NCBI GenBank assembly: GCA_046328905.1
Contig: JAXLVP010000002.1
Location: 197,499 to 261,498, forward strand
Length of the DNA: 64,000 bases
Source of the DNA: Bdellovibrionota bacterium
GTDB taxonomy: Bacteria > Bdellovibrionota_C > UBA2361 > SZUA-149 > CAZDWZ01
Direction of reading: 5' to 3'
A program made the translations under genes and the position numbers. Numbering within the stretch: the first letter of the stretch is position 1; each line of letters starts with the position of its first letter. Below are positions 79-24,286 of this stretch, piece after piece. The notes under the pieces were generated by a model. The model was not told the DNA's origin, did no database searches, and saw only the letters and a list, made by a program, of their open reading frames with translations.

Positions 79-912
79 CTATATCGGGTTCCCCCAATTA
101 ATCCATGTCGTCTCGTCGTTATGCTGCTCGCCTTTCTGAATTGGGAAGAACTGCAGAAGCCGAGGCTCGTGAATTTTCGGGTCGTACCCGTTTTTTGCAA
201 GCTCTTCCGGGAAATATCCCACGGCACAGGTCGAACGTGTGATGTTGTTTGGCACTTTCTTAACAACGACAGAAAGCTGACCATTGTAGGTCGCAATCGA
301 TGCGTTTCTGCAATCGAAGCCGGCACAGACGAGCTGATTGAGAAGCGTCCACTGATTGTAAAGATTGTGATGTCCGGACACGAATGAGTGAAGAGAAAGC
401 GCCGAGTTCATAAAAGGCACCGTCAAAGCCAGAACCCCGCCCTCACGCAGATCGTCATACACTTTGTCGAGAAACGCCCCCGGATTGCGAATATGCTCCA
501 GCACATGGCTGCACCAGATCGCATCGAACTTCCGGATGAATCTTACGTCCAGGAAGTCCACCTCGATATCCACTTCACGACATGGGAAATCAGGATGATT
601 TTGCCACGGCTTTGCTGGCTCGAGCGCCGCGACATCCTTCCCGAGTGCATCGAAGATGTAGCTCGCCATACCGTCGTTTGTCCCAAGGTCGAGCACAGTC
701 CTGAAATCGTAGTGCTTGATAAGCTTCAGCATCGCGAGATGCGCGTACCAGAGCGGTCGTCGGTATGTTTTTCCGCCGCGCGAGATCGCGAATTCCACGG
801 CGCAAGGCGTCCAGCGGAACGGTGGCAGCGGCCGCACTTCGATTCTCGGTTCGGCTCCCGGTGGATCGGAATATTCCCGCCCGACCTCTCGCGTCATAAA
901 GTCGCCGTTCAT
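79..912 (-). CDS. class I SAM-dependent methyltransferase
   Basis: 277-aa ORF with glycine-rich SAM-binding motif I (VLDLGTNDG) followed by an acidic residue; start overlaps the upstream gene stop by 4 nt (operon coupling). Confidence 0.7.
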   Translation of the reverse strand: MNGDFMTREVGREYSDPPGAEPRIEVRPLPPFRWTPCAVEFAISRGGKTYRRPLWYAHLAMLKLIKHYDFRTVLDLGTNDGMASYIFDALGKDVAALEPAKPWQNHPDFPCREVDIEVDFLDVRFIRKFDAIWCSHVLEHIRNPGAFLDKVYDDLREGGVLALTVPFMNSALSLHSFVSGHHNLYNQWTLLNQLVCAGFDCRNASIATYNGQLSVVVKKVPNNITRSTCAVGYFPEELAKNGYDPKIHEPRLLQFFPIQKGEQHNDETTWINWGNPI

Positions 913-1823
913 TTTCCGATCTCCTCGATAATCAACTTTCTGCTCAAACCATGCGCCTGCCGAAGCTCGGCGTGGCTACCATAAACGTGAACAAATTCAT
1001 CTTTCAGACTGAAGGTCTTTAAAGCACACGTGGCTTTCGTATCCCACGCAATCTGCTTCACTTGCGCGGCCAGCCCACCTACGCAGGAATGTTCTTCGAT
1101 TGTAACGACGAGTGAATGCGTCTTGAGAGCTTTTGCAATTCCCTCTCGGTCGATAGGCTTCATAGTATGGCAGGAGACGAGCGAAACGGATCGTCCCTGC
1201 CCCGCAAGCTCCTTGGCCACATCACCGGCAAGGTCCATGACATGTCCAAAAGCGAGCACGCACACGTCAGTCCCTTTGGTGATGTATCGAATCTTTCCGA
1301 ACTCGAACGGGTCCACCGCTTTGTCCGTAAAGTTCGGCTCTCCCGCCTTTCCAATTCGGAGATACACGGGTCCTGGTGACACCGCACAGTAGCGAATTGC
1401 CTCCGCGAGCTCGAGGGGGTCACACGGAGCAAGAATTGAGATATTCGGGATCGGACTCAGGATACCCACATCCTCTTGCGTAAGGTGCGTACCTCCGAGC
1501 GTCGAATAAATAATTCCCGCGCCCATTCCGACCACCGTGACTGGCAGATTCTGATAGCAGAGGTCGTCGCGAATCATCTCGAACGGACGATAAGCGCTAA
1601 ATGTGGCGATGGTGTAAGCGAATGGTCGAAATCCGCGAAGAGCCATGCCGGCGCACAAACCGATCATACCCTGCTCGGACACCCCAACATCGATGAACTT
1701 CTCCGGGAATTGTTTGCGAAACAGCTCCATGCTTCCGACGGGAGAGATATCAGCGACGACGCAGCAGATATTCGGATCTGCCATCCCCACTTCATAAAGG
1801 GTCTGGGCAAATAGATTTCTCAT
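909..1823 (-). CDS. transketolase, C-terminal (pyrimidine-binding) subunit
   Basis: 304-aa ORF resembling the pyrimidine-binding/C-terminal half of transketolase (IDVGVSEQGMIG, AGMALRGFRPFAYTIATF, VTVVGMGAGI); coupled to the N-terminal subunit gene immediately upstream. Confidence 0.8.
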   Translation of the reverse strand: MRNLFAQTLYEVGMADPNICCVVADISPVGSMELFRKQFPEKFIDVGVSEQGMIGLCAGMALRGFRPFAYTIATFSAYRPFEMIRDDLCYQNLPVTVVGMGAGIIYSTLGGTHLTQEDVGILSPIPNISILAPCDPLELAEAIRYCAVSPGPVYLRIGKAGEPNFTDKAVDPFEFGKIRYITKGTDVCVLAFGHVMDLAGDVAKELAGQGRSVSLVSCHTMKPIDREGIAKALKTHSLVVTIEEHSCVGGLAAQVKQIAWDTKATCALKTFSLKDEFVHVYGSHAELRQAHGLSRKLIIEEIGK

Positions 1824-2641
1824 CGCAGACCTCCTTCGAGCTCGGACAGCGCTTGCTTATATTCTTCGGCGTTCGGGGAACGATAGTGCCAGATCGGCAC
1901 GTTCTCCATGTAGCTTACACCTTTTCCCTTCGTCGTACGGCAAATAACGAACAGGGGCTTCTGACCTTTCCGCGACATAACCGCATCAAACATCGCCGCC
2001 GAATCGTGGCCGTTTTCGATCTCCTTCACTTCCCAACCGAATGCAGCCACTTTGTCGCCAACCGGATAAAATGTCGGATGCAGCTCGCTCGTGCGTCCAA
2101 GCGATTGAAAGTCGTTGAGGTCAAGGAACGCGACGAGATTTGTGATACCAAGCGAAGACGCAATCATCATGCCTTCCCAGGTCGAGCCTTCTTGCAGCTC
2201 GCCGTCGCTCAACACCGCATACACGTTTGCATCTTCATTTCGGATCTTATGTGCGTAGGCAATTCCGGCAGACATCGTCATGCCATGCCCGAGTGATCCG
2301 GTTGACGCCTCAATACCCGGATTCCCGTAGTCAGGGTGAGTCCCGAGAATCCCGTCCGGCTTGCAGTACCGGTCAAGATGCTTCGACTCCAAAACTCCGA
2401 GCTTTTCGAGCGCCATATACTGGGCCAAACATCCATGCCCTTTGGACATGACGAACGTGTCCGGGCTCGTTCCGTCCGGGTTCCGACGCATGAGCGAGAA
2501 GTAGCAAAGCTCGGTAATCTCCATACAGGAGTAGGCCGACGCGATATGGAGGGCCGAGACCGTTTGCGAGATATGGAGAATCCGCTTGCGGAACTCAAGG
2601 CAGCGAGCCTGCGATGCTGCGAGATCGAATTTTTTCGTCAT
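1820..2641 (-). CDS. transketolase, N-terminal (TPP-binding) subunit
   Basis: TPP-binding half of a split transketolase (SKGHGC, SLGHGMTMSAGIAYA, LSDGELQEGSTWE). Start set at ATG 2641, which has a GAGG RBS 7 nt upstream; the track ORF extends to 2680 (TTG). Confidence 0.8.
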   Translation of the reverse strand: MTKKFDLAASQARCLEFRKRILHISQTVSALHIASAYSCMEITELCYFSLMRRNPDGTSPDTFVMSKGHGCLAQYMALEKLGVLESKHLDRYCKPDGILGTHPDYGNPGIEASTGSLGHGMTMSAGIAYAHKIRNEDANVYAVLSDGELQEGSTWEGMMIASSLGITNLVAFLDLNDFQSLGRTSELHPTFYPVGDKVAAFGWEVKEIENGHDSAAMFDAVMSRKGQKPLFVICRTTKGKGVSYMENVPIWHYRSPNAEEYKQALSELEGGLR

Positions 2642-2661
2642 ATGAGCCTCGTCGCGGACCA

Positions 2662-3315
2662 TCAGTTGATGATCGTCCAATAATAATCGCCGGTGTAGCC
2701 GGCTTCATCGAAAATCTTCTTCCAGAAATCCGGATATCCGTGAGTCTTCGCGGTGAGCACCCACTTCGCAAAGATCTCCTCCTCTTCCTTTGTCCGATAG
2801 GAGTCGACCTGAATGAAGCCTTTGCCTGGTGCGATCCGCTGCATCTCCTTGATCGCCTGAATGCAAAGTGGCCGCTCGAGGTTGTGTAGCGTGTTCAGAG
2901 AGATCGCCGCCGTGAAGCTTTTGTCCGGAAAAGGAAGCTTGAGCGCGTTCCCGAGATGGAGGCGGCCGACGACTTCCGGCTCGCAGTGCATGAGCGCGTA
3001 CTCTGATATCTCAATCCCGTAAACTTCCAAGCCTGGACATACCTTCATGAGGTCCTTGACGAGAAAGCCCTTTGCGCAACCGATGTCGAGAACGCGATCG
3101 CCCGGCTTTAGCCCCCAATGCTCGACGAAAGTCTCGGCGACGGGGATCCAACGACCGTCGTAGCGGTAGCCGCCGTAGCCGTGGTTGCGACTCCCATCGA
3201 AGTAATCCTTCCCGTACTGCAATGCGATGCGTTTGTCCTCCTCGGACGCAGCGGCACGCTCGGTGAGGTTCCGTTTCGGCTTCGGAAGTTTGTGCAGGAG
3301 CTCGATCTCAGCCAT
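2662..3315 (-). CDS. class I SAM-dependent methyltransferase
   Basis: Motif I VLDIGCAKGFL; start placed at ATG 3315 (GAGGA RBS), 1 nt after the upstream stop; track ORF extends to 3348. Confidence 0.7.
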   Translation of the reverse strand: MAEIELLHKLPKPKRNLTERAAASEEDKRIALQYGKDYFDGSRNHGYGGYRYDGRWIPVAETFVEHWGLKPGDRVLDIGCAKGFLVKDLMKVCPGLEVYGIEISEYALMHCEPEVVGRLHLGNALKLPFPDKSFTAAISLNTLHNLERPLCIQAIKEMQRIAPGKGFIQVDSYRTKEEEEIFAKWVLTAKTHGYPDFWKKIFDEAGYTGDYYWTIIN

Positions 3316-3316
3316 T

Positions 3317-4189
3317 CTATCCTCGCGCCTTCTTGATACCTTCGCCAAACGGCGTCATGCGAAAAGCCGGAAAATTGCGTAGGAGCTCAGTGATATCAAA
3401 GTGACGGTGCGTTACCGGGCTTTGTCGCGGTTGATTGACAATTTTCACCTCGGTCATCAATCCCTTGATCGAAGCTGCGACTTCACCAAACGAGAGAGCA
3501 CTGCCCGAAGCGGCGTTGACAACTCCAGTCGCCTTACGAGAAACCAGCTCAGTAATGAGAGAGATGAGATCGTCGATGAACAGATGGTCTCGCTGTTCTT
3601 CGCCCTGACCGGTCAATGAGATCTCATTTTTCTCGAGAGCCGTCTTGAGAAAACGATTCGGGCCATAGCTGTTGTGAGTGTCTCCGGCTCCGTATATCGC
3701 GCAGGGACGAACAATGAGCAGGGGCGTTCCCGCCTTTTTGCAGGACTCCGCCAGCATTCTCTCCCGCGCGAGATGCATCACTCCGTGGAAGCTGCTCGGA
3801 TTACAGGCAGAGGTCTCACGCACCGGATGGGCAGCGTCATCGTAGACTGCATCCGAACTAATATAAACGACATGTGCACACGGATGAGCTTCAATAGCTT
3901 CACACACCGCGTCTGCCATCGCCAGATTCTTCAAGAGAGTCTTCCGGTCCCGCCCTTTGTCAGGCGTAAGGGCCGAAATGAAGACCAGGGTGTCTTCTGA
4001 ATTCAGCGCTTCGCCGAGCTTGGTTCCCGCGTCTTCGGAAAGGAGATCAAGGTCCCGAGATGAGAGCGCCTTCGTTGCCCAACCCAGCTCGCGAGTTTTC
4101 GCTTCTAGATTCTTCCCCACGAAACCACGTGAACCGAGTATTACCATTCGCGAAGGTGTCTTTCTTTCTGACGAACTGAGACTCAGCAT
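3317..4189 (-). CDS. NAD(P)-dependent epimerase/dehydratase family (SDR) sugar reductase/epimerase
   Basis: N-terminal Rossmann motif ILGSRGFVGKNL and SDR-like fold; start at ATG 4189 (GGAG RBS) 1 nt after upstream stop. Confidence 0.65.
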   Translation of the reverse strand: MLSLSSSERKTPSRMVILGSRGFVGKNLEAKTRELGWATKALSSRDLDLLSEDAGTKLGEALNSEDTLVFISALTPDKGRDRKTLLKNLAMADAVCEAIEAHPCAHVVYISSDAVYDDAAHPVRETSACNPSSFHGVMHLARERMLAESCKKAGTPLLIVRPCAIYGAGDTHNSYGPNRFLKTALEKNEISLTGQGEEQRDHLFIDDLISLITELVSRKATGVVNAASGSALSFGEVAASIKGLMTEVKIVNQPRQSPVTHRHFDITELLRNFPAFRMTPFGEGIKKARG

Positions 4190-4190: not shown

Positions 4191-5483
4191 TCATTTCTCC
4201 GTCTTTTTCCCCAAAGTGTGCACGGTAAAGCCTGCCTGATCAAAATCGCGTGAGCTCAACGCGCCGAACGGATCAAGAACCACCCGCCCCTTCATCGCGT
4301 TGGCGACCTCGCCCGCAGGAATCTTCTTGAACTCTGACCACGGGGTTATGAGCACGAGCACGTCCGCTCCTTCACACGCATGGAGAGCGGATTCGGCTTG
4401 CACGACTCGATTCGCCGCGCGTTCACCGAGCTTCACCATCGGGTCATACGCTCGAACACGTTGAGCCTTCAGCGAATCGATCAGCGCAACGGACGGCGAA
4501 TTCTTGATTGAGTGAGTGTCCGGCTTGTAGGCGATTCCCCAGATTCCGATGAGTGGGTCATCTTGCTTTGAAAACACAACTGACGAAAGCTTCCTGAGTA
4601 CCCAGTCTCGTCGATAGACGGCATTGGAAAACCAAGCTTCGATTACCGAGCTATCTGTTCCATGCTCCCGCGCGAGCGACTGCACGGTCACCAGATCTCG
4701 TTCCAAGTTACCGCCCGCGATCCCAAGACCGGGCTGCAGATACGCATGCGGGCCGATTCTTTTATCAAGCCGAAGTGATGGGGCGATCTCGCCCCACTCT
4801 GCCCCTATCTCTTCGCAAAGCTCTGCGAGCGTGCTCGTCGTAATCACTGAGGAAACCAGAAACATGTTGATAGAGATCTTTGCAAGCTCCGCGCTCTCAT
4901 AGCGCATCGGCAGAACAGGACAATCAAAGAGCGAGAGCACCTTCTGATACGCATCCGGGAGCGGAGCCTTCGGGTCCTTGCAACCAACGATGTATCGCTC
5001 CGGGTTGAGCATGCGGCTCATTGCGATACCGAAGACCAGTGTCTCCACCTGGTAATACAGTTGAATGTTCCGATTCTCGCGTTCGACGAGGGCTCCGAGC
5101 GCTCGGGTGAATCCAGGCGACACCTGGCTGTGGATAACCAGCGTCGCGCCGGTTTTGAGCGACGGGAGAATTTTTTCGAAAAGCTCCAATATCGGCGTTG
5201 GGTCGCTGATATTCTTGTCCGAGGTCGGCACGTCGCGAGCAATGTAGAGCACTTCACATCCGCCGAGGTCAGCTTGGTTCGCGGTGAATCGCACTCGGCT
5301 CCCCGCTTCGTGCAAGAGCTCAGACAGATTCTCCTCGAACACAGGCAGCTCGAACCTCGCCAACTTCGCCACGAGCGACGCGTCCGTTTCGAAGCCGAGA
5401 ATGTTCGCACCGCGAGATGCCAGCCCCACGCCGGTTATGAGACCGAGGTGCGAAAGTCCGACAATACCAACGTTCAGGCTCAC
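4191..5483 (-). CDS. nucleotide-sugar 6-dehydrogenase (UDP-glucose/GDP-mannose dehydrogenase family)
   Basis: 430 aa; N-terminal NAD-binding VGIVGLSHLGL and C-terminal GIAYKPDTHSIKNSPS...YDP motif typical of this family. Confidence 0.8.
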   Translation of the reverse strand: MSLNVGIVGLSHLGLITGVGLASRGANILGFETDASLVAKLARFELPVFEENLSELLHEAGSRVRFTANQADLGGCEVLYIARDVPTSDKNISDPTPILELFEKILPSLKTGATLVIHSQVSPGFTRALGALVERENRNIQLYYQVETLVFGIAMSRMLNPERYIVGCKDPKAPLPDAYQKVLSLFDCPVLPMRYESAELAKISINMFLVSSVITTSTLAELCEEIGAEWGEIAPSLRLDKRIGPHAYLQPGLGIAGGNLERDLVTVQSLAREHGTDSSVIEAWFSNAVYRRDWVLRKLSSVVFSKQDDPLIGIWGIAYKPDTHSIKNSPSVALIDSLKAQRVRAYDPMVKLGERAANRVVQAESALHACEGADVLVLITPWSEFKKIPAGEVANAMKGRVVLDPFGALSSRDFDQAGFTVHTLGKKTEK

Positions 5484-6394
5484 TTCCCCTCCTCATACAG
5501 CTTGCGCAGCGTCCTGTTGATCCAAAGGTCGTTGTCGAGATTCGTACCGCCGCGTTTCGCATGCTCAACAAAATATTCGTATTCGAGCTTCCACGTGGGG
5601 TCGGCACACTCGAGCGTATCGGATGCTTCAGTCGGACGTCCGGATGGCAGAACCCGCTTGCGAACAGTGATCGTGCTCGGCCCCCATTTACACAGGCAGT
5701 TGACATGAAGCGATCCGGCATCTCCGATCACATCCAGCCGAAATGTGTTTCTCCACGACAGCAACGTCGCCTCGAGCTGGATGCGCGGCATCTCAGCTTG
5801 CGAGCCGAAAACAACGTGGTCATACGAATTATTTTCCAGCCGGTAGTAACTGAACGGCTTGAGGTCCGTTCGGTGCTCACCAAGCAAGAAATCGGTTGTA
5901 TCAAGCAGGTGAGAACCGAGGTCCGCCAGCACACCCATTCCTTTGTCTCGCCAGACAGAGTTACGAACTTCACGCGCCGTCCCGTTTCCGTAGAACATCT
6001 CGAGGGAAAGAACCTTCCCAATCTCCCCCGCCGTTATAATTTCGCGGGCGCGGACGAGAAACGGCTCGAAGCGATGGTTGTATGCGGTGTAACAAAACAC
6101 CCGCCGCTTCGCGGCCAGATCGCGAAGGCGCTCGATATCCCGGTCGTCCTCGCTCACGAGCGGTTTTTCGACTAGGACGTGCTTCCCGTTATCGAGGAGG
6201 TAGGAAAGAATCTCGATCTTTGCTTCGTCCGGAGTGCACACCAATGCCGCGTCATACGATTCGAGTGGAACGTCTTGCACTCGCGTAAACTGGGCGTCCG
6301 GCTTTACAGGATCAACCGTCGCAACAAGATCGCTGCCGGCGAACTTGCTGCGTTTCGCACCTTGAATCCCGAGCCCGGCGACGATGACTCTCAT
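5480..6394 (-). CDS. Gfo/Idh/MocA family NAD(P)-dependent oxidoreductase
   Basis: N-terminal Rossmann fold with the VLVEKPL (EKP) signature; translationally coupled on both sides. Confidence 0.75.
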   Translation of the reverse strand: MRVIVAGLGIQGAKRSKFAGSDLVATVDPVKPDAQFTRVQDVPLESYDAALVCTPDEAKIEILSYLLDNGKHVLVEKPLVSEDDRDIERLRDLAAKRRVFCYTAYNHRFEPFLVRAREIITAGEIGKVLSLEMFYGNGTAREVRNSVWRDKGMGVLADLGSHLLDTTDFLLGEHRTDLKPFSYYRLENNSYDHVVFGSQAEMPRIQLEATLLSWRNTFRLDVIGDAGSLHVNCLCKWGPSTITVRKRVLPSGRPTEASDTLECADPTWKLEYEYFVEHAKRGGTNLDNDLWINRTLRKLYEEGK

Positions 6395-7977
6395 CGGAGC
6401 AGGACTTTGCTGATCAGGTTCTTCGACATCTCGGTCATCTGCTCAACCGACTGGAGCTTCGCGATAACGTCATCCGGTGTTACGGGGTGATTTCCGTCTC
6501 TTTCACACGCGACCGCGGCTGCGGCCGAGCCGATGATTGTCGCGATAACCGCCGACTTGCTAGTGTAAAGAGAAAGAGAAGAATAGGAGAGCATCGCATC
6601 GCCCGCGCCGACAGCATCGACGACGTGGTCAACGAAGCTATCGACAATAAAAAACGCTGAGACCTCTTCCGGACTTCGATACGTGAGCACGCCTCGTTCG
6701 CCCATCGTCATCATCAGACATTTGCACTTCGCGCGCGTGAACAGCTCGCGGGCGAGCGGGCGTACGACTGAGTCCTGATCTCCGAGAGCGAAACGAACCT
6801 CGCGCTCGTTCGGCGTGATCAGATCACATCCTTGAAACTCGACGATGTTCCCCCATCGGCTGGCAACTTGGCTATCCGCAACCTTGAAGGTCCCCTCCGG
6901 CACCGCTTCGAGGAATGCCGGGATGGTGTTCCGATTGAAAATTCCGTGACGAAAATCTGAGAACACGACGATGTCGGCCGGAGTATTGACAATCGAGTCG
7001 AGCAGCTGAGCGCGAATACGTTCGGAGATGATCCGATTGTCGACCTTTCCAACTCGAAGGAGATGGTAGCCGCTTGCAAGAAAAGAGTTCTTCTGGGTGG
7101 TCGGGCGTGTTTTGTCGATGACAGCGTGATTGTGAATGCCCGATTCTTTCAGTTCCGACGCGACAAAGTCTTTCAGCGCATCATCGCCCATGACCGTCGA
7201 AAAGGTGACATCCGCGCCCGCTTTTTTGATGTGACGCGACACGACCGCTGCACCGCCTGCAAAGTCCACTTGACGGTCGAACTGCACCGTCATTGTCGGC
7301 GTTTTCACGGCGCCACCCTGCATGCGGCAATACGTGTAGGAATCTACAATCGTGTCGCCGATCACATGCACTTTCACGTCTTTGAATTTGTCGAGTGTTG
7401 AATAGAGGTCTTGGAACGTAATATTCTCGGACTCCATCAGGAGCACGAGCTTCGCCGCTCCCAAGCGAGGGGAGAATGCTTCCGAGTCCGAGCTCGTCGT
7501 ATACTCGGCATCCCCTGGGGTGAAGAGAACTTCGCCGCCGTAAGCCTCTACCGCTGTGACGTCTTCGCGCGCCTTCGCAGGACTGCCGCTCTCGAAATAA
7601 TCAAATCCTTTCGCGAAATAGTCCGGCTGAAGAATGCGGATATTGTCGAGCGGCTGCTCATTTCGATCGATGATGACGTAGTCTACAAACTCTAGCGCAG
7701 CGAGGTTTACCGCGCGAACATCTTCCGGAACCGAAGGTCGCAAGCTCGATCGTTCGATGTACTTGTCTGAGACGAGCGTCGCCACGAGAATATTGGCGCG
7801 CTCCTTCGCGTACATCAGATGGCGAAGATGGCCGGGATGCACGATATCGAACGAGCCGTGACACATCACGACGGACTTCGTCCGCGGATGCGGACCGACG
7901 AGGTCTCGCACCTCCTCCACCGTACGTATCTTGCGGCGGAAATCCTCCGCTTTGTGCTGCTTCTTCGCCTTCATCAT
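6391..7977 (-). CDS. bifunctional cytidylyltransferase-like nucleotidyltransferase / PfkB-family sugar kinase (HldE-like, reversed domain order)
   Basis: N-terminal CHGSFDIVHPGHL (HxGH nucleotidyltransferase motif); C-terminal PfkB kinase (VHVIGDTIVD ... DAVGAGDAM). Confidence 0.7.
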   Translation of the reverse strand: MMKAKKQHKAEDFRRKIRTVEEVRDLVGPHPRTKSVVMCHGSFDIVHPGHLRHLMYAKERANILVATLVSDKYIERSSLRPSVPEDVRAVNLAALEFVDYVIIDRNEQPLDNIRILQPDYFAKGFDYFESGSPAKAREDVTAVEAYGGEVLFTPGDAEYTTSSDSEAFSPRLGAAKLVLLMESENITFQDLYSTLDKFKDVKVHVIGDTIVDSYTYCRMQGGAVKTPTMTVQFDRQVDFAGGAAVVSRHIKKAGADVTFSTVMGDDALKDFVASELKESGIHNHAVIDKTRPTTQKNSFLASGYHLLRVGKVDNRIISERIRAQLLDSIVNTPADIVVFSDFRHGIFNRNTIPAFLEAVPEGTFKVADSQVASRWGNIVEFQGCDLITPNEREVRFALGDQDSVVRPLARELFTRAKCKCLMMTMGERGVLTYRSPEEVSAFFIVDSFVDHVVDAVGAGDAMLSYSSLSLYTSKSAVIATIIGSAAAAVACERDGNHPVTPDDVIAKLQSVEQMTEMSKNLISKVLLR

Positions 7978-8020: not shown

Positions 8021-9022
8021 TTAGGTCAATCCGATCTTCTTGATCATCTTCACGTTGAAGTAATGCGGGTCATCGAAGCTGTTCGGGAGCTTCCCGGCTT
8101 TGAACGCTTTACACAGTCCGCGAACGGCATCTTCGATACTGTATTTGGGCTCGAAGCCAAGCACTCGGGCTATTTTCGCCGACGAAACGTGGTATGACCG
8201 AAGGTCGTCGGACTCGGTGGTCACGATTTCAATCGGAGCGAGCTCCGGCATCTCTTCTTCCACGACGTTCTTCACGATAACGGCAAGATCGGCGAGCGTT
8301 CGGTTCTGGAATCCGGCATTGAATGTCTCACCCTGAATCTGTGCCGCCGGTGTCTCGAGCAAGCTCACGTAGAGATCGGTAATATCTTCGATATGAATAT
8401 TCGGCCGCTTCTGAGGTCCGCCGAACACGGTGATCTTGCGTTTATTCACGGCGTGATTCGTAAGAATATTCACCGAAAGGTCGAGACGAGTCCGGGGAGA
8501 GTAACCGCAAATAGTCGCAGGACGGATTACGACACAAACAAAGTCATCAGACTTGTGCTTCAGAAGAAGCGGCTCAGTCAGTCCTTTGTACTTATTGTAA
8601 TCAGTGATCGGCACCAAGGGATGCTCTTCGGTGACTTCCGGCGCATCGCTCACGCCGTAAACGGAGCTCGTCGAGGCGTAGATGAAGCGTTCTACACCCG
8701 CTTCCTTCGTAGCAACGACCATCGGCTCGAAGCAGTCGTAGTTGATAGCCTTGCTCAATCCGTCGTTCAGCTCGAAGCTGGGATCGTTCGAGATACAGGC
8801 GAGGTGGATGATCGAGTCGCAACCGGCAATCGATTTCGCGAAATACGGAGTATCGCGGATGTCGCCTTTGATAACTTTCAGATTTTGATGTTTCGGAATG
8901 CCCTGTTCGCCGTAGAGCATGAGGTCGTAAATCCGAACCTTATGTCCCAATGCGAGGAGCTTCGGAACAAGAACAGAGCCCACATAGCCCGCGCCGCCAG
9001 TTACAAATATTTCACGTTGCAT
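8021..9022 (-). CDS. NAD-dependent epimerase/dehydratase (extended SDR, UDP-sugar 4-epimerase-like)
   Basis: GGAGYVGS Rossmann motif and YNKYK (YxxxK) catalytic motif. Confidence 0.8.
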   Translation of the reverse strand: MQREIFVTGGAGYVGSVLVPKLLALGHKVRIYDLMLYGEQGIPKHQNLKVIKGDIRDTPYFAKSIAGCDSIIHLACISNDPSFELNDGLSKAINYDCFEPMVVATKEAGVERFIYASTSSVYGVSDAPEVTEEHPLVPITDYNKYKGLTEPLLLKHKSDDFVCVVIRPATICGYSPRTRLDLSVNILTNHAVNKRKITVFGGPQKRPNIHIEDITDLYVSLLETPAAQIQGETFNAGFQNRTLADLAVIVKNVVEEEMPELAPIEIVTTESDDLRSYHVSSAKIARVLGFEPKYSIEDAVRGLCKAFKAGKLPNSFDDPHYFNVKMIKKIGLT

Positions 9023-9192: not shown

Positions 9193-10569
9193 ATGTCATT
9201 TTCAGCCTCCTTCCTCCGTGAAGCGATGCAAATCGCCGACCAACTCGACGAGAGCGCTATCGAACGAGCTGTGCAGGTTCTCCGCCGGACACGAGACAAT
9301 CAGGGAAGGCTGTTTCTGATCGGATCTGGAGGCGGAGCCGGTCATGCATCGCATGCTACCTGCGATTTCCGGAAGCTCTGCAGCATGGAGGCCTACTGCC
9401 CCACCGATAACGTCTCAGAGCTGACCGCCCGAATCAACGACGAAGGATGGGATTCCTCCCTGGCAAACTGGCTCAAAACTTCTCGGTTAAATGGAAAAGA
9501 TTGCCTTTTTGTCTTTTCCGTTGGTGGCGGAAGCGAAGACAAGAACATCTCCGTGAATCTCGTCAACGCTATGAAGGCGGCGAAAGAGGTCGGCGCATCA
9601 ATCGTCGGCGTTGTCGGCCGAGATGGTGGATTTACAGCCAAAGTAGCGGATGCTGCGATAGTGGTGCCAACGGTCGATGCTTCCCGGGTCACTCCTCACA
9701 CAGAAGCCTTCCAAGCGCTCGTTTGGCATTTGATTGTCTCTCATCCGGCTCTCCAAACCGGCACGGCAAAATGGGAAGGAACACAGTCATTTGCCTCAAA
9801 GTCCGGACAAAAGGCGACTTCGATTCACCAGCTGCACGTGAAGGTGTTCGCCGACGGCGCGGAGCTCGCGGGAATGCTTGAAATGTATCGCAACCCCCTC
9901 ATCGCCGGCTTCACGACGAACCCGACGTTGATGAAGAAGGCCGGCATTGTGGACTACGCTGCCTTCGGCAAAGATGTTCTAACGCTCATAAAAGACAAGC
10001 CGATCTCATTCGAGGTGTTCTCCGACGACTTTGCGGAGATGGAAGCACAGGCGCTTACCATCGCTTCTTGGGGCGAGAACGTATATGTGAAGATCCCTAT
10101 CACCAACACCCGTGGTGAATCAGCAGTGCCGCTCGTGAAGCGACTCACCGCTGCTGGAGTCAAAGTAAACGTCACAGCGATTATGACCTTGGAGCAGATC
10201 GAAGAGGTCCTGCCGGCCTTAAAAAATACCGCGGGCGCATACGTCTCCGTGTTCGCGGGTCGAATAGCCGACACCGGCCGCGACCCACTACCGATGATGA
10301 AAGCCACGATGAAAATGCTCGCGGAGCATCCAGCCGTCGAGCTCATCTGGGCGAGCCCCCGTGAGCTGCTAAACATTTTCCAGGCGAACGAGATTGGCTG
10401 CCACGTCATCACGGTAACGAATGACGTCCTGAAGAAGCTCACGCTCGTCGGTAAGGATCTTTCCGAGTATTCGCTCGAGACTGTCCAGATGTTTCGGAAT
10501 GATGCTGTTTCGGCGGGATTTTCGCTTGAAGTGGATTCTGATGGAAAGGAGAGTCAGATAGCGGCGTGA
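9193..10569 (+). CDS. fusion protein: SIS-domain sugar-phosphate isomerase (GmhA-like) + transaldolase/fructose-6-phosphate aldolase-like domain
   Basis: N-terminal SIS motifs (LFLIGSGGGAGHASH; FVFSVGGGSEDKN ... VVGRDGG); C-terminal TalC/FSA-like motifs (GFTTNPTL, Schiff-base-type YVKIP, SVFAGRIAD). Confidence 0.75.
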   Translation: MSFSASFLREAMQIADQLDESAIERAVQVLRRTRDNQGRLFLIGSGGGAGHASHATCDFRKLCSMEAYCPTDNVSELTARINDEGWDSSLANWLKTSRLNGKDCLFVFSVGGGSEDKNISVNLVNAMKAAKEVGASIVGVVGRDGGFTAKVADAAIVVPTVDASRVTPHTEAFQALVWHLIVSHPALQTGTAKWEGTQSFASKSGQKATSIHQLHVKVFADGAELAGMLEMYRNPLIAGFTTNPTLMKKAGIVDYAAFGKDVLTLIKDKPISFEVFSDDFAEMEAQALTIASWGENVYVKIPITNTRGESAVPLVKRLTAAGVKVNVTAIMTLEQIEEVLPALKNTAGAYVSVFAGRIADTGRDPLPMMKATMKMLAEHPAVELIWASPRELLNIFQANEIGCHVITVTNDVLKKLTLVGKDLSEYSLETVQMFRNDAVSAGFSLEVDSDGKESQIAA

Positions 10570-10609: not shown

Positions 10610-11143
10610 CTAATGCACGCACCGGTCGTTGAACCCGGTATTCTCCTGACTGCTAGAATTCGCGAGCTCTCCGTTCGTTGCGACAGTGCAGCCTCCGTTA
10701 CCAACGAGCGGTGTCTCCATGGGGTTACCATTCGTGTGACCGTCAAAATGAGGATACGCGAAGTTGCTGCCCCACTCCCCGTCGTCTGTCATTTGAATGA
10801 GTCCTGCTCGGCTAAGCTGACACGCAATCTTAAACTCGGCTGGCTCGGGAAGCCGTTTGCCTGCTTCGGCACAACTCTGGTGACAATCTTCCCACGCTAT
10901 TCCTGCGCCTGAAAATTGGTCTTTATCCGCATAAATCCCGGTGGGACCAGCAGTTCCTTCCGATCCTATGGGAACGAAGACCTCACTTGCGCTGCGGATT
11001 TTCGCATGAGGATGAAATAAAACGTTCTTCGTCATTTCCTGATTCACGATCTCGGACCCGAGCGATTGCGCGATGGCGCTCGATGAGAACAAAACCGAAC
11101 CTGCGATGAGACATACGAGTGACGTGAGTGATTTTCTGGGCAC
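10610..11143 (-). CDS. small secreted Cys-containing protein, paralog A (possible DUF1566/Lcl-like lectin-fold domain)
   Basis: N-terminal signal peptide (LVCLIAGSVLFSSSAIAQ); W-E-D-C...KRLPEP.EF motif; clear paralog of the 30332-30880 gene; GTG start. Confidence 0.55.
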   Translation of the reverse strand: MPRKSLTSLVCLIAGSVLFSSSAIAQSLGSEIVNQEMTKNVLFHPHAKIRSASEVFVPIGSEGTAGPTGIYADKDQFSGAGIAWEDCHQSCAEAGKRLPEPAEFKIACQLSRAGLIQMTDDGEWGSNFAYPHFDGHTNGNPMETPLVGNGGCTVATNGELANSSSQENTGFNDRCVH

Positions 11144-11239
11144 CCCTCGTGTTTGCAGTGCGGTATTGACCGGGACCTCGGAACGATATCCGTCCGCCGA
11201 GCGTTAATCGAGTAGTTGAGCAAATTTTTTCTTGGATGC

Positions 11240-12487
11240 TTACTCAGGCGAATACCCAAGCCGCTCCATCAATTCTGGCGTCGCAATTGACCGTATCCGA
11301 GCCTTTTGAGATTCGCTGAAGGCGGAGCGCCACTCATCGTTCACGCCCTTGCGGAACGCATAATCGCCTGGCTTGCACTCGTATGGTTCGCCCCGAAATT
11401 CGCTCCGTGGAATTCCGTGGAAATCGACTATCGAACGAAAAAAATCTTCCGGCCGGCTTTTGAAATCTTCAAACTTGGTCCATTGGATCTCGAAGCTCCG
11501 AGACGGATCGGCTTCCGCATCCAACCATCCCTGGATCCATTCGATCTCCACACCGAGGTAGAACTCTATCGCCGCGTCGAGCTTTTCTGCCAACGTCTTC
11601 CGAAAATAGCCTTCTGGAAAATTACACTCGAGCATTGCCATCTCGTATCGCTGCATTTCTGGCGTACGTTGAGCCATCGTTCGCAACGCTTCTTCAACGT
11701 AGAGTATGGACGAATAGAACGCCTGGCGTGGATCGCGGAGGTGGACGTTCACCTTCCTTATACCGCTTAGGTTCAGGGCGAGGATGCTCCGTTTGCACGG
11801 GAACATGTGCGCGTGCAGTATTCCGCCATAGTGGAGAAAGCGTTCGAGCAGCTTCGGGATGATTGGTGCTCTATTTCCACCGTATTGGTCCGTGATCGGG
11901 TCGCGGTGGTCAAGCATACCGAGGCGCCTCGAAAGCTCGGCACAGATGAAGGTTCCGGCTGAATGCCCGATAGCTGCAAAAAGGATGGACTGATGGTTTC
12001 GGAAAGGCTCTCGTTGGGCTTCGAGGTCTAACTGTCTGATCGTATCGCGAAGAACATTGAAAACCTCCATGTTTCCGGGGTGAAATTGGAGGAGGGCGCG
12101 GAGCACCTTGACCGCATCCTCGTGCTGCTTGGACTCCACGAGCAGTCGAGCGAGCGGAAGACCATACTCTACAGCGTCCGGCCGGAAGCGCAGCGCACTC
12201 GTGTAGCTCTGGATAGCTTCTGCTCGGTACTGAAGTAGAGAGCAGAGCTCTGCATGGTGATGAAAGAAAACCGGATGCTTGTGCGGCTGAGAAATCGCCT
12301 TTCTGAGGACTTCGAGAGACTCGAGCGCCTTCCCGGAGCGAAGGAGAGCCACGCCCAACAGATCCAGAACGGACGCATTGTTCGGATCAGCGGCAAGCTC
12401 TGTCTCGAGAACCGAGCATGCCTCATCAATGCGACCCGCTTCCAGGTTCGCTAGCGCGTTCGGCGGATAATGGATCTCAGTCAGCAA
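11240..12487 (-). CDS. TPR-repeat protein with C-terminal sulfotransferase-fold domain
   Basis: N-terminal TPR-like repeats; C-terminal sulfotransferase-like motifs (LRDPRQAFYSS resembling the 3'-phosphate-binding region; FRKGVNDEWRSAFSE resembling the C-terminal RKG..GDWKN.F motif). Confidence 0.55.
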   Translation of the reverse strand: MLTEIHYPPNALANLEAGRIDEACSVLETELAADPNNASVLDLLGVALLRSGKALESLEVLRKAISQPHKHPVFFHHHAELCSLLQYRAEAIQSYTSALRFRPDAVEYGLPLARLLVESKQHEDAVKVLRALLQFHPGNMEVFNVLRDTIRQLDLEAQREPFRNHQSILFAAIGHSAGTFICAELSRRLGMLDHRDPITDQYGGNRAPIIPKLLERFLHYGGILHAHMFPCKRSILALNLSGIRKVNVHLRDPRQAFYSSILYVEEALRTMAQRTPEMQRYEMAMLECNFPEGYFRKTLAEKLDAAIEFYLGVEIEWIQGWLDAEADPSRSFEIQWTKFEDFKSRPEDFFRSIVDFHGIPRSEFRGEPYECKPGDYAFRKGVNDEWRSAFSESQKARIRSIATPELMERLGYSPE

Positions 12488-12624: not shown

Positions 12625-13377
12625 ATGAAGACGGAATGGGATTACACCGACCTCGCGGACGCCTACCTCAAGCGCGCGCCCTATTCGGACCAAGCGCTCG
12701 ACGAGATGGTGCGGCTCGCAAGTTTAGATGCAGACTCTGTAATCTGCGATGTTGGAGCCGGCACCGCGCATCTCACACTGCCGATCGCGAAGCGGGGCTA
12801 TCGAGTCACTTCCGTGGAACCGAACGATGCAATGCGCGCAAACGGTATGCGTCTGACCTCCAATCTGCCCAACGTGAGCTGGATTGAGGGCACGGGCGAA
12901 GATACCAAGCAGCCCGTCTCTTCATTTGACATGGTCACTTTCGGCTCATCGTTCAACGTGACAGACCGACCGCGGGCACTCGTTGAAACTGCGCGAATTT
13001 TGAAAAACCGAGGATGGTTTGCATGCATGTGGAACCACCGCTCACTCGAAGATCCGATTCAACAAGGAATTGAATCTGTCATTCGAAAGCACATTCCGGA
13101 ATACGACTACGGTAGCCGCCGAGAGGACCAGACGGAAGTAATCAACGCCTCAGGTCTGTTTGGGAAAGTTCACAAGCTCGAAGGCCCGGTCAGCCATCGC
13201 CAATCAATTGATGATTGCGTCGAAGCTTGGCGCTCCCATGCCACTCTGCATAGGCAAGCTGGAAACAGCTTTCAAACGATCGTTGACGAGATCGAGAACT
13301 TTCTCCGAGCGAAGAACGTCGATTCAATCGACGTTCCTTACCAAACTCGAATCTGGTGTGCGCAGAAGAAGAGCTAG
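12625..13377 (+). CDS. class I SAM-dependent methyltransferase
   Basis: Motif I ICDVGAGTAHL with acidic residue at the end of beta2 (VEPND). Confidence 0.7.
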   Translation: MKTEWDYTDLADAYLKRAPYSDQALDEMVRLASLDADSVICDVGAGTAHLTLPIAKRGYRVTSVEPNDAMRANGMRLTSNLPNVSWIEGTGEDTKQPVSSFDMVTFGSSFNVTDRPRALVETARILKNRGWFACMWNHRSLEDPIQQGIESVIRKHIPEYDYGSRREDQTEVINASGLFGKVHKLEGPVSHRQSIDDCVEAWRSHATLHRQAGNSFQTIVDEIENFLRAKNVDSIDVPYQTRIWCAQKKS

Positions 13378-15882: not shown

Positions 15883-16392
15883 ATGGACGATCAGTCGAAT
15901 AGCGCGCGAATTTTTTGGATTACTGGTTACCCCGGTGCCGGAAAAACCACACTCGCGAAAGAGGTAATGCTCGCCTTGGAGTCGCGGGGCACACCAGCGA
16001 TACTCGTCGACGGCGACGCTGTCAGGGCTATCTTCGGAAATGACTTAAGCTACGACGACGCAGGCAGAATTCAGAACGCTTGGCGCATCGCACGACTTTG
16101 CAAATTTGTCGCCGGCCAGAATATCGTGGTCGTTGCTGCTACTGTGTCTCTCTACGCGGAGGTGCGCGATTGGCTTCGCGGCGAATGTAGTGGATATCGG
16201 GAGGTCTTTGTTTCCGTAACGAAAGAAACGCTCCAGCAGAGAGACCAAAAAGGGCTCTATTCTTCCGGCGCCCCGGTTCCAGGCCTCACTCAGAGATCAG
16301 AAGAACCGCTGAATCCGCACTTGAGGATACAGAATGACGAACATCGAGAATCTTTCGCATCGCTCGCCGAGACGATTCTCGCTCTCCGGTGA
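15883..16392 (+). CDS. adenylylsulfate (APS) kinase family protein (CysC-like nucleotide 3'-kinase)
   Basis: P-loop GYPGAGKTT and LVDGDAVR motif typical of APS kinase; 169 aa. Confidence 0.75.
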   Translation: MDDQSNSARIFWITGYPGAGKTTLAKEVMLALESRGTPAILVDGDAVRAIFGNDLSYDDAGRIQNAWRIARLCKFVAGQNIVVVAATVSLYAEVRDWLRGECSGYREVFVSVTKETLQQRDQKGLYSSGAPVPGLTQRSEEPLNPHLRIQNDEHRESFASLAETILALR

Positions 16393-19474: not shown

Positions 19475-19476
19475 GT

Positions 19477-20840: not shown

Positions 20841-20846
20841 GACGAA

Positions 20847-21962: not shown

Positions 21963-21987
21963 GCCACCTCCCAAAATCCGCTGCGCG

Positions 21988-22758: not shown

Positions 22759-22760
22759 AG

Positions 22761-23903: not shown

Positions 23904-24286
23904 CGCGAAGCGGCATCGATTCTAGGGCAAACGTAATTCCATTTGCAGCACGCAGGTGTGCCGCCCTATTCGGATGTAGGAAATCAGCAGAGTGGTTCGA
24001 CAACCCATCAAGTGTCAATTCGATGACAGTACCGCAGATCGTCGATCTCAGGCTCGATCTTCTTTGAGCGAGACCGTAGGTCGTCCGTCTCGTCACACCG
24101 AGCGCGGAAATTGACCGTTGGTGTGCGGAATCGCCTCACTGGGTCGGTAATCGATCTTATCGTTCGATTCAGACGCTCCGGATACTCAACGCGAGGCCGA
24201 ACAAGCAAAGGTACGCCGAACCCAAGCCGCGCTTTCGCTCATCTTTTAAAGAGGATTAGTCCCGCAAAACTGGTGAGTTTTTTCGT
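23904..24286. promoter_or_regulatory. divergent intergenic region (putative promoters for the methyltransferase operon and the radical-SAM operon)
   Basis: 383-bp gap between divergently transcribed operons; no convincing small precursor-peptide ORF inside. Confidence 0.3.

Follow-up and report, generated by a model that had tools for sequence, protein, structure and literature searches.

A split transketolase in a conserved nucleotide-sugar cassette: a candidate enzyme for late two-carbon tailoring of an unusual sugar

What is a transketolase doing at the end of an operon that otherwise encodes nucleotide-sugar enzymes? A preliminary description of this Bdellovibrionota DNA (a stretch of 64 kb, called the window below) had placed two adjacent, translationally coupled transketolase halves at 909-2641, inside a nucleotide-sugar operon, and had offered two functions for them: two-carbon transfer onto a sugar, or dedicated supply of sedoheptulose-7-phosphate. 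The coordinates prove exact and the split is confirmed by domain, structural and gene-overlap evidence alike. The tktN product matches PF00456 Transketolase_N (E 7e-29) and the tktC product PF02779 Transket_pyr (1e-28) and PF02780 Transketolase_C (2e-19), so that all three transketolase domains are present, spread over two genes (Table 1). The closest solved relatives of TktN and TktC are PDB 6yak (E 2e-43) and 6yaj (3e-49), the two chains of the split transketolase of Carboxydothermus hydrogenoformans. Translation of tktN starts at the ATG at 2641, with a GAGG 8-9 nt upstream, and its stop shares an ATGA at 1823-1820 with the tktC start. With the NCBIfam models the scores reach at best 192 and 151 bits where 488 are required (NF004559), but these models are full-length and their threshold is beyond the reach of a single subunit. 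The family is of the transketolase type, with only a faint precomputed match to E1_dh. An identity as DXS was also considered and rejected, given the two subunits, a TIGR00204 score of 158 bits where 466 are needed, and only 23-36 bits for the N-subunit (TIGR00204 and NF003933 cut-offs).

Table 1. The split transketolase genes and the neighbouring genes of the operon in the window
Feature	Coordinates	Strand	Details
MT_A, second class I methyltransferase	79..912	-	277 aa; Pfam Methyltransf_23; start overlaps tktC stop (ATGA)
tktC, pyrimidine-binding and C-terminal subunit of split transketolase	909..1823	-	304 aa; PF02779 + PF02780; PDB 6yaj
tktN, TPP-binding subunit of split transketolase	1820..2641	-	273 aa; PF00456 Transketolase_N; PDB 6yak
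MT_B, class I SAM methyltransferase	2662..3315	-	217 aa; 20 nt upstream of tktN; Pfam Methyltransf_11/25/31
SDR_3317, RmlD / GDP-fucose-synthase-like extended SDR	3317..4189	-	Pfam Epimerase, RmlD_sub_bind
Nucleotide-sugar dehydrogenase (UGDH) homologue without catalytic Cys	4191..5483	-	TIGR03026, 209 bits
Gfo/Idh/MocA oxidoreductase	5480..6394	-	304 aa; Pfam GFO_IDH_MocA + C3 domains
HldE-like bifunctional enzyme, swapped domains	6391..7977	-	PF01467, PF00294
SDR_8021, extended SDR, first operon gene	8021..9022	-	Pfam Epimerase
SIS (GmhA-like sugar-phosphate isomerase)-transaldolase fusion, divergent	9193..10569	+	PF13580, PF00923

The location inside a nucleotide-sugar operon is equally well founded: from 9022 down to 79 the genes share one strand and are spaced by -4 to 43 nt, every one of them belongs to a sugar-nucleotide enzyme family, and tktN and tktC adjoin the 3' end of this tightly packed series. 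The divergent fusion beside it scores 351 bits with the TIGR02134 transaldolase model (cut-off 282) and 8e-13 with gmhA; in other lineages its counterpart is a set of three neighbouring genes for a SIS protein, a HAD phosphatase and a transaldolase that head the cassette, and no HAD phosphatase was found in the window. In the HldE-like enzyme the nucleotidyltransferase is N-terminal and the PfkB sugar-phosphate kinase C-terminal; it matches rfaE_dom_I (5e-46) and rfaE_dom_II (3e-23), both under the equivalog cut-offs, and its top PDB relative is the heptose-7-phosphate kinase 4e84. The presence of a GmhA-like isomerase and of a heptose-kinase-like domain hints at a substrate of the heptose type. 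The first operon gene encodes an SDR whose top PDB match is 6vo6/6vo8 (2e-40, with the runner-up at 2e-25); we take 6vo6 to be Cj1427, the GDP-heptose C4-dehydrogenase of Campylobacter jejuni. The UGDH homologue is more unusual. When it is aligned with PDB 3gg2, GGSCFPKD becomes GGNLERD, and Asn stands at the position of the catalytic Cys in every relative (58/58 and 72/72); K202, N206 and D263 are retained. The Gfo/Idh/MocA gene invariably adjoins it in the cassette. SDR_3317, with its likely start at ATG 4189, one base past the stop of the upstream gene, is conserved across the cassette and is probably a reductase or epimerase. The MT_B orthologues share 53-85% identity and MT_A is not conserved at other loci. 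Beyond the window edge, an identical Logan contig continues after MT_A with a 282-aa SDR and a GT2 glycosyltransferase.

Judged by its residues, the tktN/tktC product is no ordinary transketolase. We have aligned 83 TktN and 74 TktC relatives, checking the numbering against human H37, H77, H110, H258 and Q428. The catalytic and donor-binding histidines (E. coli H26, H66, H100, H261 and H473) are kept as TktN H32, H69, H102 and H252 and TktC H113; the ThDP/Mg motif is present as S145-D146-G147 ... N176; and the cofactor-activating glutamate (E. coli E411, human E366) is TktC E50. The four TktN histidines, D146 and N176 do not vary among the 83 relatives, nor E50 and H113 among the 74. Such strict conservation of the cofactor and catalytic positions makes an active enzyme probable. 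Two non-canonical motifs, SLG-H119-G and S145-DG (the latter with Ser for the first Gly of GDG), are also invariant in the 83 TktN relatives and are family traits. The canonical phosphate-binding set (E. coli R358, S385, H461 and R520) is not retained, only the R358 equivalent, TktC R2, staying in place: H461 has become G101 and R520 K159, both invariant in the 74 relatives, and S385 has become V29, a position that is Ala in most of them. D469 (human D424), which binds the acceptor 2-hydroxyl, is replaced by L109, with Leu in 73/74 relatives, and the GEDG motif thereby reads S-T-L109-G. According to PMC5073344, S385, D469 and R520 are the positions at which E. coli transketolase has been engineered away from phosphorylated acceptors. 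Nevertheless, with R2 kept and R520 replaced by Lys, the remodelled pocket could still bind a phosphate, and sugar-phosphate substrates would therefore still be conceivable.

Members of the subfamily share 55-83% identity among themselves and 34-39% with the split transketolases of C. hydrogenoformans, Azospirillum and Streptomyces. The C. hydrogenoformans enzyme resembles ours in being encoded by two genes with the same split point, in its three domains and in its cofactor and catalytic residues. However, the two are only 34-36% identical, the substrate channel of the C. hydrogenoformans enzyme has retained the canonical His, Asp, Arg and Ser (Gly, Leu, Lys and Val in the window enzyme), and the window enzyme is firmly embedded in a glycan cassette. 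It is thus very improbable that we are dealing with the housekeeping transketolase, lodged by chance in a glycan locus. No full-length tkt was found within the 64-kb window, and certain bacteria and archaea do rely on split transketolases in their central metabolism, C. hydrogenoformans being an example; but here the canonical substrate residues are gone, the identity to this bona fide split transketolase is low, the cassette linkage is strict across phyla (see below), and the enzyme is sporadic in Bradyrhizobium species, which presumably carry ordinary tkt genes.

The surrounding genes form a cassette that is large, spread widely over the phylogeny and, it appears, not yet characterised. It consists of a SIS isomerase, transaldolase, Cj1427-like SDR, HldE-like enzyme, Gfo/Idh/MocA oxidoreductase, UGDH homologue, SDR and methyltransferase; it occurs in Bradyrhizobium, Nitrospira, Acidobacteria, Verrucomicrobia and Bdellovibrionota, and the majority of the 80 genome loci, which span at least 6 phyla, share its gene order. 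The Bradyrhizobium manausense version is an 11-gene operon. In a second sample of 20 loci, anchored on the UGDH homologue and each with at least 6 kb of downstream sequence, the core cassette persists while the thiamine enzyme varies: 4 loci have a split transketolase, 10 a non-homologous pair resembling the alpha and beta subunits of pyruvate dehydrogenase E1 (PDH-E1), and 6 neither. The E1-like pairs occupy the same region downstream of MT_B and were seen on 3 shorter contigs as well. MT_B itself adjoins the thiamine module in 14/14 loci that have one and occurs in 1/6 of those without, and the transaldolase recurs alongside the core wherever the upstream region is present. To the conserved core of the cassette the split transketolase is an optional addition, placed at its 3' end. 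The gene directly after tktC encodes an SDR, usually of the ketoreductase type, in 27 loci and in 20 others a DegT aminotransferase. The minimal locus of Thalassobaculum litoreum comprises SDRs and the transketolase only, with the SDR_8021 homologue retained and no transaldolase, isomerase or kinase within 10 kb of the transketolase; it points to an SDR-generated ketone as the acceptor.

These observations bear directly on the two functions first offered. The pocket replacements, the optional nature of the module, its exchange for E1 pairs and the SDR or DegT that follows all favour two-carbon transfer onto a sugar, and for the same four reasons dedicated sedoheptulose-7-phosphate supply is disfavoured. 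We consider it quite unlikely that the split transketolase works with the cassette transaldolase on ordinary sugar phosphates as a private non-oxidative pentose-phosphate branch, yielding either sedoheptulose-7-phosphate or ribose-5-phosphate and erythrose-4-phosphate for a heptose or octose pathway. The idea retains some appeal because the transaldolase, like the GmhA-like isomerase, is a constant member of the cassette; transketolase and transaldolase turn fructose-6-phosphate into sedoheptulose-7-phosphate in any textbook, and the cofactor and catalytic residues as well as the R358-equivalent Arg are all kept. Yet three of the four phosphate/acceptor contacts, plus D469, are replaced across the family, and the transketolase accompanies the UGDH homologue in only 4 of the 20 loci even though the transaldolase recurs with the core. 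Moreover, in 10 of these loci the substitute is an E1 pair, and E1-type enzymes can neither make sedoheptulose-7-phosphate nor supply pentose-phosphate intermediates. The position of the transketolase also speaks against precursor supply, at the operon 3' end beside a methyltransferase and a reductase or aminotransferase and away from the transaldolase, as does the T. litoreum locus with its transketolase and none of the three sugar-phosphate enzymes sought nearby.

A role in early chain building, where two carbons would be added to an unusual aldose phosphate before activation to give, for example, an octulose or nonulose phosphate, is unlikely as well. Transketolases do form octulose-8-phosphate from hexose phosphates, as in plants (PMC5854111), an Arg and a Lys are still at the phosphate site, and the same cassette holds a sugar-phosphate isomerase and a kinase. 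Against this, the core does without a transketolase in most of the sampled loci, so the enzyme is not required for the backbone; with an E1 in its place the product would presumably be a 1-deoxy-ketose, of no use to the isomerase/kinase route; and in gene order the transketolase comes after the enzymes that modify the NDP-sugar.

The reading that we prefer, with a probability of roughly 0.6, is that the split transketolase acts late, as a tailoring enzyme that transfers a two-carbon ketol to a nucleotide sugar bearing a keto or aldehydo group. By family membership, the pathway would begin with the transaldolase and SIS isomerase building a heptose or octose phosphate (compare LmbR and LmbN of the lincosamide pathway), which the HldE-like enzyme would then phosphorylate at C1 and couple to a nucleotide, with an intermediate dephosphorylation by the HAD phosphatase in the sister loci. 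The Cj1427-like SDR, the Gfo/Idh/MocA oxidoreductase and the UGDH homologue would then install carbonyl groups, the last being limited to a two-electron oxidation because it is without the catalytic Cys. There are several NDP-sugar oxidoreductases capable of providing a keto acceptor, these three upstream of the transketolase and an SDR downstream. The transketolase would form dihydroxyethyl-TPP from a ketol donor, perhaps a ketose phosphate or hydroxypyruvate, and join the two-carbon unit to the carbonyl of the NDP-sugar. Judging from the context, the most likely acceptor is a ring C4 ketone, giving a C-glycolyl branch; alternatively, the unit would be added to an aldehyde or ketone at the end of the chain and so lengthen it. 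The new ketol would be reduced by the downstream SDR or, in other lineages, transaminated by the DegT enzyme, and MT_B may methylate the same sugar. Formation of a new ketone by the transketolase is supported by the SDR or DegT gene after tktC, since reduction and transamination are the usual fates of ketones. The operon product would be an unusual 7- or 8-carbon nucleotide sugar.

Precedents exist for thiamine-dependent two-carbon branching of NDP-keto sugars, namely YerE (yersiniose) and AviB1/AviB2 (the eurekanate of avilamycin). YerE is a flavoenzyme of the acetolactate-synthase type and AviB1/B2 is E1-type, and both use pyruvate to introduce acetyl or hydroxyethyl branches. The likeness we propose is that of an SDR-made NDP-4-keto sugar that receives a TPP-bound two-carbon unit and is then reduced; in enzyme type, AviB1/B2 also corresponds to the PDH-E1 alpha/beta pairs of the sister cassettes. 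A transketolase, by contrast, would transfer a hydroxyacetyl (glycolyl) group taken from a ketol donor. Some other thiamine chemistry is distinctly unlikely for the window enzyme, be it C-C cleavage beside a ketone, which would shorten the sugar, or DXS-like use of pyruvate to add a hydroxyethyl or acetyl group. There are weak matches to DXS models (PF13292 at 1.5e-5, besides TIGR00204), the sister cassettes have E1 enzymes of the pyruvate type, and the UGDH homologue would yield an alpha-hydroxy-ketone that could in principle be cleaved. But the four His that grip the hydroxymethyl of the dihydroxyethyl intermediate are all invariant, the DXS scores fall far under the cut-offs, and shortening would reverse what the cassette builds.

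The late-tailoring reading finds another parallel in azinomycin biosynthesis, where AziC5/C6, a characterised split transketolase, lengthens an aldehyde by two carbons, with transamination afterwards (PMC9570651). The AziC5/AziC6 system and related LysW/AmCP pathways employ a split transketolase as a biosynthetic two-carbon extender on a carbonyl that is not a sugar phosphate; in one LysW-type cluster on a Streptomyces plasmid a DegT gene adjoins the split transketolase, which shares with ours the SLGHG motif and a replaced D469 position. The differences are also substantial. Enzymes of this type are only about 34-35% identical to the window enzyme, and their acceptor is an N-acyl or carrier-bound glutamate semialdehyde, whereas no ArgB, ArgC, LysW or LysX-type gene was found among the window ORFs examined. 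The Streptomyces enzyme retains the His equivalent to E. coli H461 that the window enzyme has lost. Finally, while DegT directly follows tktC in the sister loci mentioned above, the window has a methyltransferase and then an SDR, its own DegT (26601-27830) lying 24 kb away.

At the level of enzyme families, the cassette resembles the lincosamide octose pathway (LmbR, LmbN, LmbP, LmbK, LmbO, LmbM, LmbL, LmbZ and LmbS; functions in PMC12945683 and PMC4351081; see also PMC5854111). Both have a transaldolase, SIS isomerase, kinase, HAD phosphatase, nucleotidyltransferase, SDR epimerase, UGDH-like protein, Gfo/Idh/MocA oxidoreductase and DegT, the set being complete for the cassette taken over all loci rather than in this window alone. 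Unlike the lincosamide pathway, however, the window has its kinase as a PfkB domain fused to the nucleotidyltransferase, the cassette belongs to Gram-negative hosts and to a context of glycan assembly; the lmb cluster is without a transketolase. SDR_8021, for its part, recalls the GDP-heptose enzymes of C. jejuni, being far closer to 6vo6/6vo8 than to other solved SDRs. In the C. jejuni GDP-heptose modification clusters the C4-dehydrogenase Cj1427 acts with its partners, alongside a GHMP kinase and a guanylyltransferase; in contrast to the cassette, they are not known to include a transaldolase, a Cys-less dehydrogenase or any thiamine enzyme.

Sugars that are C-branched or have a higher carbon number (yersiniose, erwiniose, caryophyllose, bradyrhizose and lincosamine are examples) contribute to the make-up of O-antigens, capsules and antibiotics, and to our knowledge there are few cases in which the enzymes that make their extra C-C bonds are known. 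This locus pairs a lincosamide-like backbone pathway with an interchangeable thiamine module, for which a split transketolase and an E1 alpha/beta pair are the two options. It is tempting, though quite speculative and improbable as a specific guess, to suppose that the cassette makes a ten-carbon sugar, with eight carbons from transaldolase chemistry and two thiamine-derived ones as a C4-linked branch, and that it could be the long-missing route to sugars of the bradyrhizose type or close to it. Bradyrhizose is a C10 bicyclic O-antigen sugar in which hemiacetal closure is possible on O4, O5 or O9 (PMC9912281), from which C9 would be bonded to the tertiary C4 carbinol; this C9-C4 connectivity is what one would expect of a two-carbon addition at a C4 ketone followed by cyclisation onto C8. 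In 2016 the genes for its biosynthesis were reported as unknown, except for an 11-gene 'sugar modification' operon (PMC4743980); the B. manausense version of the cassette, too, is an operon of 11 genes. Near the cassette there is also a conserved radical-SAM/SPASM gene in several lineages, this window included. Were this speculation right, the split transketolase or the E1 pair in its place would catalyse the C-C-forming step for a new family of branched or carbocycle-fused higher sugars, widespread in environmental bacteria.

Should the inferred function hold, the enzyme would define a new functional transketolase subfamily with the signature G-x-G...Y-S-T-L-G-G-T-H, K replacing R520, and SLGHG. 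It would also be a natural template for transketolase engineering, nature having altered the same positions that engineers mutate, and the structure of the glycan sugar could be tested in cultured B. manausense, Thalassobaculum and Pseudolabrys taiwanensis. The locus also draws attention to a family of UDP-glucose-dehydrogenase homologues that has lost the catalytic cysteine.

The preliminary description had reported two adjacent, translationally coupled genes for the N- and C-terminal halves of a transketolase, set in a nucleotide-sugar operon, and each of these points is borne out. Pfam domain matches and open reading frames place both halves at 909-2641, the stop codon of tktN and the start codon of tktC overlap in ATGA, and the pair lies within a run of sugar-nucleotide enzyme genes, all co-oriented from 9022 to 79 on the minus strand with intergenic gaps of -4 to 43 nt (see table). 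The closest solved structures for both proteins are chains of the Carboxydothermus hydrogenoformans split transketolase (6yak, 2e-43, for TktN; 6yaj, 3e-49, for TktC). The only contig on which TktC was matched is a 5.8-kb Logan contig identical to the window, where an SDR and a GT2 glycosyltransferase gene continue past the window edge. Among the proteins of the cassette (the conserved nucleotide-sugar gene set around tktN/tktC), curated NCBIfam cut-offs were reached only by the transaldolase and by a generic nucleotide-sugar-dehydrogenase subfamily, and PDB searches with the methyltransferase, the second SDR and the Gfo enzyme found no informative characterised relative. Promoter and terminator scans of the window gave matches at chance level, and Rfam and tRNA scans gave none. 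The HldE-like protein has a domain order opposite to that of E. coli HldE, kept throughout the cassette, and scores well under the HldE equivalog cut-offs.

Table. Genes of the sugar operon and of the continuing glycan locus in the window
Feature	Coordinates	Strand	Remarks
Second methyltransferase (MT_A)	79-912	-	after tktC, last operon gene in window
tktC	1823..909	-	304 aa; Transket_pyr 1e-28, Transketolase_C 2e-19
tktN	2641..1820	-	273 aa; ATG 2641, GAGG ahead of start; Transketolase_N E 7e-29
Class I methyltransferase (MT_B)	2662-3315	-	just ahead of tktN
RmlD-like SDR	start probably ATG 4189	-	between dehydrogenase and MT_B genes
Nucleotide-sugar dehydrogenase	4191-5483	-
Gfo/Idh/MocA oxidoreductase	5480-6394	-
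HldE-like protein	6391-7977	-	nucleotidyltransferase, then PfkB kinase (swapped domains)
Extended SDR	8021-9022	-	operon gene 1
GmhA-like SIS isomerase + transaldolase fusion	9193-10569	+	divergent from operon; transaldolase part TIGR02134, 351 bits (cut-off 282)
TIGR04372 glycosyltransferase	17942-19744
GLF-type pyranose/furanose mutase	20847-22100
TylF-type O-methyltransferase	21988-22758
Methyltransferase	22761-23903		380 aa
DegT aminotransferase	26601-27830
PhyH-like protein	27850-28674		weak match
Formyltransferase	29605-30300

Both subunits were aligned to human transketolase (with the numbering verified by counting) and to 6yak/6yaj, and residue conservation was scored in the 74 TktC and 83 TktN relatives extracted from the fetched loci. 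The catalytic apparatus is retained: in TktN the four N-half histidines (H32, H69, H102 and H252) and the Mg ligands D146 and N176; in TktC the cofactor-activating E50, H113 (E. coli H473) and R2 (E. coli R358). The substrate pocket of TktC differs from that of the E. coli enzyme, with His461 replaced by Gly101, Arg520 by Lys159, Ser385 by Val29, and the GEDG motif that holds Asp469 by S-T-Leu109-G. Gly101 and Lys159 are invariant among the 74 relatives, position 109 is Leu in 73 of them and Ala or Val occupies position 29; in TktN, SLG-His119-G (canonically Gln) and Ser145-DG (canonically Gly) are invariant among the 83. One report (PMC5073344) describes mutation of S385, D469 and R520 in E. 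coli transketolase to shift it away from phosphorylated acceptors. Identity to the window proteins is 55-83% within the subfamily and 34-39% for the C. hydrogenoformans, Azospirillum and Streptomyces split transketolases. Judged from these residues, TktN/TktC is not a standard transketolase; no full-length tkt lies within the 64-kb window, and it is nonetheless unlikely that this pair is the housekeeping enzyme. A plasmid collection contained only distant split transketolases (at most 38% identity) and distant dehydrogenases (at most 33%). A distant split transketolase on Azospirillum argentinense Az39 plasmid p5 (L086, 8159-9921), shares several unusual motifs with the window enzyme (Gly at the H461 position, SLGHG, SDGE and WHYRS); it is flanked by two B12/radical-SAM genes, a kinase and a methyltransferase, and may represent another specialised transketolase system.

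A TktN scan of one genome per species gave 80 loci, most of them with the same gene order upstream of tktN/tktC. The carriers are labelled Bradyrhizobium (five species), Thalassobaculum, Xanthobacteraceae, Rhodospirillales, Nitrospira, Acidobacteria, Verrucomicrobia, Myxococcota, Gamma- and Betaproteobacteria and Bdellovibrionota. With looser coverage thresholds, a transaldolase and an SIS isomerase are constant members at the cassette head, mostly encoded apart, with the gene of a HAD phosphatase in between; the window operon showed no phosphatase of this kind. Their fusion is limited to Bdellovibrionota-type loci (the window, L084 at 1036-2718 and L026 at 1579-3552). In 27 loci the next gene after tktC encodes an SDR of about 284 aa; in 20 others this place is taken by a DegT aminotransferase gene, and in six by a methyltransferase gene. 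Thalassobaculum litoreum DSM 18839 has a reduced cassette consisting of a Cj1427-like SDR, a 4,6-dehydratase-like SDR, an RmlD-like SDR, tktN, tktC and an SDR, with no transaldolase, isomerase, kinase, Gfo enzyme, Cys-less dehydrogenase or MT_B within 10 kb. A single contig of an alphaproteobacterial MAG (CAWIRE010000001.1) carries two cassette-type split transketolases about 20 kb apart (L045 and L046), in different gene contexts.

To avoid the bias of a transketolase query, we have also scanned metagenome contigs with the dehydrogenase of the cassette, counting modules over the 20 loci whose downstream sequence spans 6 kb or more. The core is retained across these loci, and it is the thiamine module that differs: four have the split transketolase, ten have instead, downstream of the methyltransferase, an E1_dh plus Transket_pyr/Transketolase_C gene pair resembling pyruvate dehydrogenase E1 alpha/beta, and six have no thiamine module, most of these carrying a DegT gene in its place. 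An MT_B orthologue accompanies the module in all 14 loci that have one, as against one of the six that do not, and that single locus stops just past MT_B. Sister cassettes with E1-like pairs (L092, L094, L103, L105, L107, L108, L121, L141, L144, L149 and L165, the last with two pairs in tandem) come from lake, marine and soil metagenomes. There is a low probability that the split transketolase, together with the transaldolase, is a dedicated precursor supply, an idea that the constancy of the transaldolase and the one Arg and one Lys still present at the phosphate site would allow; this would, however, leave unexplained the E1 replacement, the optional occurrence of the module, the remodelled pocket and the T. 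litoreum variant.

The families of the core (transaldolase, SIS isomerase, kinase, phosphatase, nucleotidyltransferase, SDR, UGDH-like dehydrogenase and Gfo/Idh/MocA), with a DegT aminotransferase alongside in many loci, correspond to the LmbR, N, P, K, O, M, L, Z and S set of lincomycin, a likeness of family composition only. In that pathway LmbR joins the C3 unit of fructose-6-phosphate or sedoheptulose-7-phosphate to ribose-5-phosphate, and the Lmb enzymes build GDP-octose and convert it to GDP-lincosamide (PMC12945683, PMC4351081, PMC5854111). The cassette backbone would have seven or eight carbons; that the transketolase itself builds the chain early, at the sugar-phosphate stage, seems unlikely. 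No other solved SDR comes nearly as close to the first SDR as 6vo6/6vo8 (2e-40); we take these structures to be C. jejuni Cj1427, a GDP-heptose C4-dehydrogenase. In the dehydrogenase the catalytic-cysteine motif GGSCFPKD has become GGNLERD, with Asn at the Cys position in 58/58 relatives from genome loci and 72/72 from metagenome loci, while the active-site Lys, Asn and Asp are retained. Lacking the thiol, the enzyme should halt after a single two-electron oxidation, which would fit a heptose or octose substrate, where the alcohol at C6 is secondary, or else release of the aldehyde. These Cys-less homologues of UDP-glucose and GDP-mannose dehydrogenases appear to form a whole family, presumably of two-electron nucleotide-sugar dehydrogenases. 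The idea that the dehydrogenase oxidises C6 of a hexose to an aldehyde, at which the chain is then extended, is weakened, because T. litoreum has the transketolase without it and because a heptose or octose, with its secondary alcohol at C6, accounts equally well for the lost cysteine.

The split transketolase is most readily explained as a tailoring enzyme that forms a C-C bond to the sugar and thereby a new adduct bearing a ketone: its module is optional, occupies the 3' end of the operon, gives way in other loci to a non-homologous thiamine enzyme, travels with a methyltransferase, and is followed by a ketoreductase-type or aminotransferase gene. YerE and AviB1/AviB2 transfer pyruvate-derived two-carbon branches onto NDP-4-keto sugars. 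TktN/TktC would similarly attach a dihydroxyethyl (ketol) unit at an NDP-sugar carbonyl. The C4 ketone that the SDRs would produce is the most probable target and a terminal carbonyl from the Cys-less dehydrogenase a less probable one, with reduction and methylation to follow. The loss of Asp469 and His461 disfavours tight binding of xylulose-5-phosphate or fructose-6-phosphate, making hydroxypyruvate a candidate donor; some other thiamine chemistry, be it cleavage or the use of pyruvate, is a little less probable still than early chain building. The AziC5/C6 split transketolase catalyses a two-carbon extension of an aldehyde that is followed by transamination (PMC9570651), and in a Streptomyces LysW-type cluster a DegT gene adjoins the split transketolase. 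Enzymes that add two carbons to sugars with thiamine are already known, as are biosynthetic split transketolases; what appears to be new is a transketolase-type enzyme in such a role on a nucleotide sugar, in so widespread a cassette. Literature searches on split transketolase, O-antigen, heptose, branched-chain sugars and chain extension found the cassette described nowhere. A transketolase in the Coxiella O-antigen region was dropped as a parallel, no literature having been found that pairs virenose with transketolase.

There is a low probability that the product is a bradyrhizose-type sugar, with ten carbons and either a branch or a fused carbocycle. Counting heptose plus two carbons plus a methyl as ten is speculation. 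Hemiacetal closure of bradyrhizose is possible on O4, O5 or O9 (PMC9912281), which would imply a C4-C9 bond at its tertiary C4 carbinol. As of 2016 its genes were unknown except for an 11-gene operon (PMC4743980), a gene number matched by the B. manausense cassette. With B. manausense TktC as the query, every match was a close relative from Bradyrhizobium or Pseudolabrys (82% identity or more), and none of the named ones is a photosynthetic strain; literature on the Bradyrhizobium O-antigen and BRADO locus tags yielded nothing on the cassette.

The glycan locus of the window continues over 17942-30300, and its GLF, TylF and DegT genes are found again near the cassette in other phyla. A radical-SAM/SPASM protein (24287-25450, +) has orthologues (51-62% identity) adjoining the transketolase cassette in Bradyrhizobium (L041, L051 and L082), Pseudolabrys (L085) and several MAGs, and may contribute to this sugar pathway, perhaps by forming a C-C bond or by methylation. 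An 803-aa PEP-utilizer/PPDK-like protein (13379-15790, -; NCBIfam NF004508, PRK05849, 970 bits) is encoded close to an APS-kinase-like protein (PRK05541), a sugar-1-phosphate/NTP transferase and a methyltransferase (15883-16392, +; 19477-20265, -; 12625-13377, +), a group that presumably resembles the C. jejuni Cj1418/Cj1415/Cj1416 O-methyl-phosphoramidate genes. Between these genes and the sugar operon stand two minus-strand genes (10610-12487): the one at 10610-11143 encodes a small secreted protein that weakly matches FGE-sulfatase-like sequences, the one at 11240-12487 a TPR protein.
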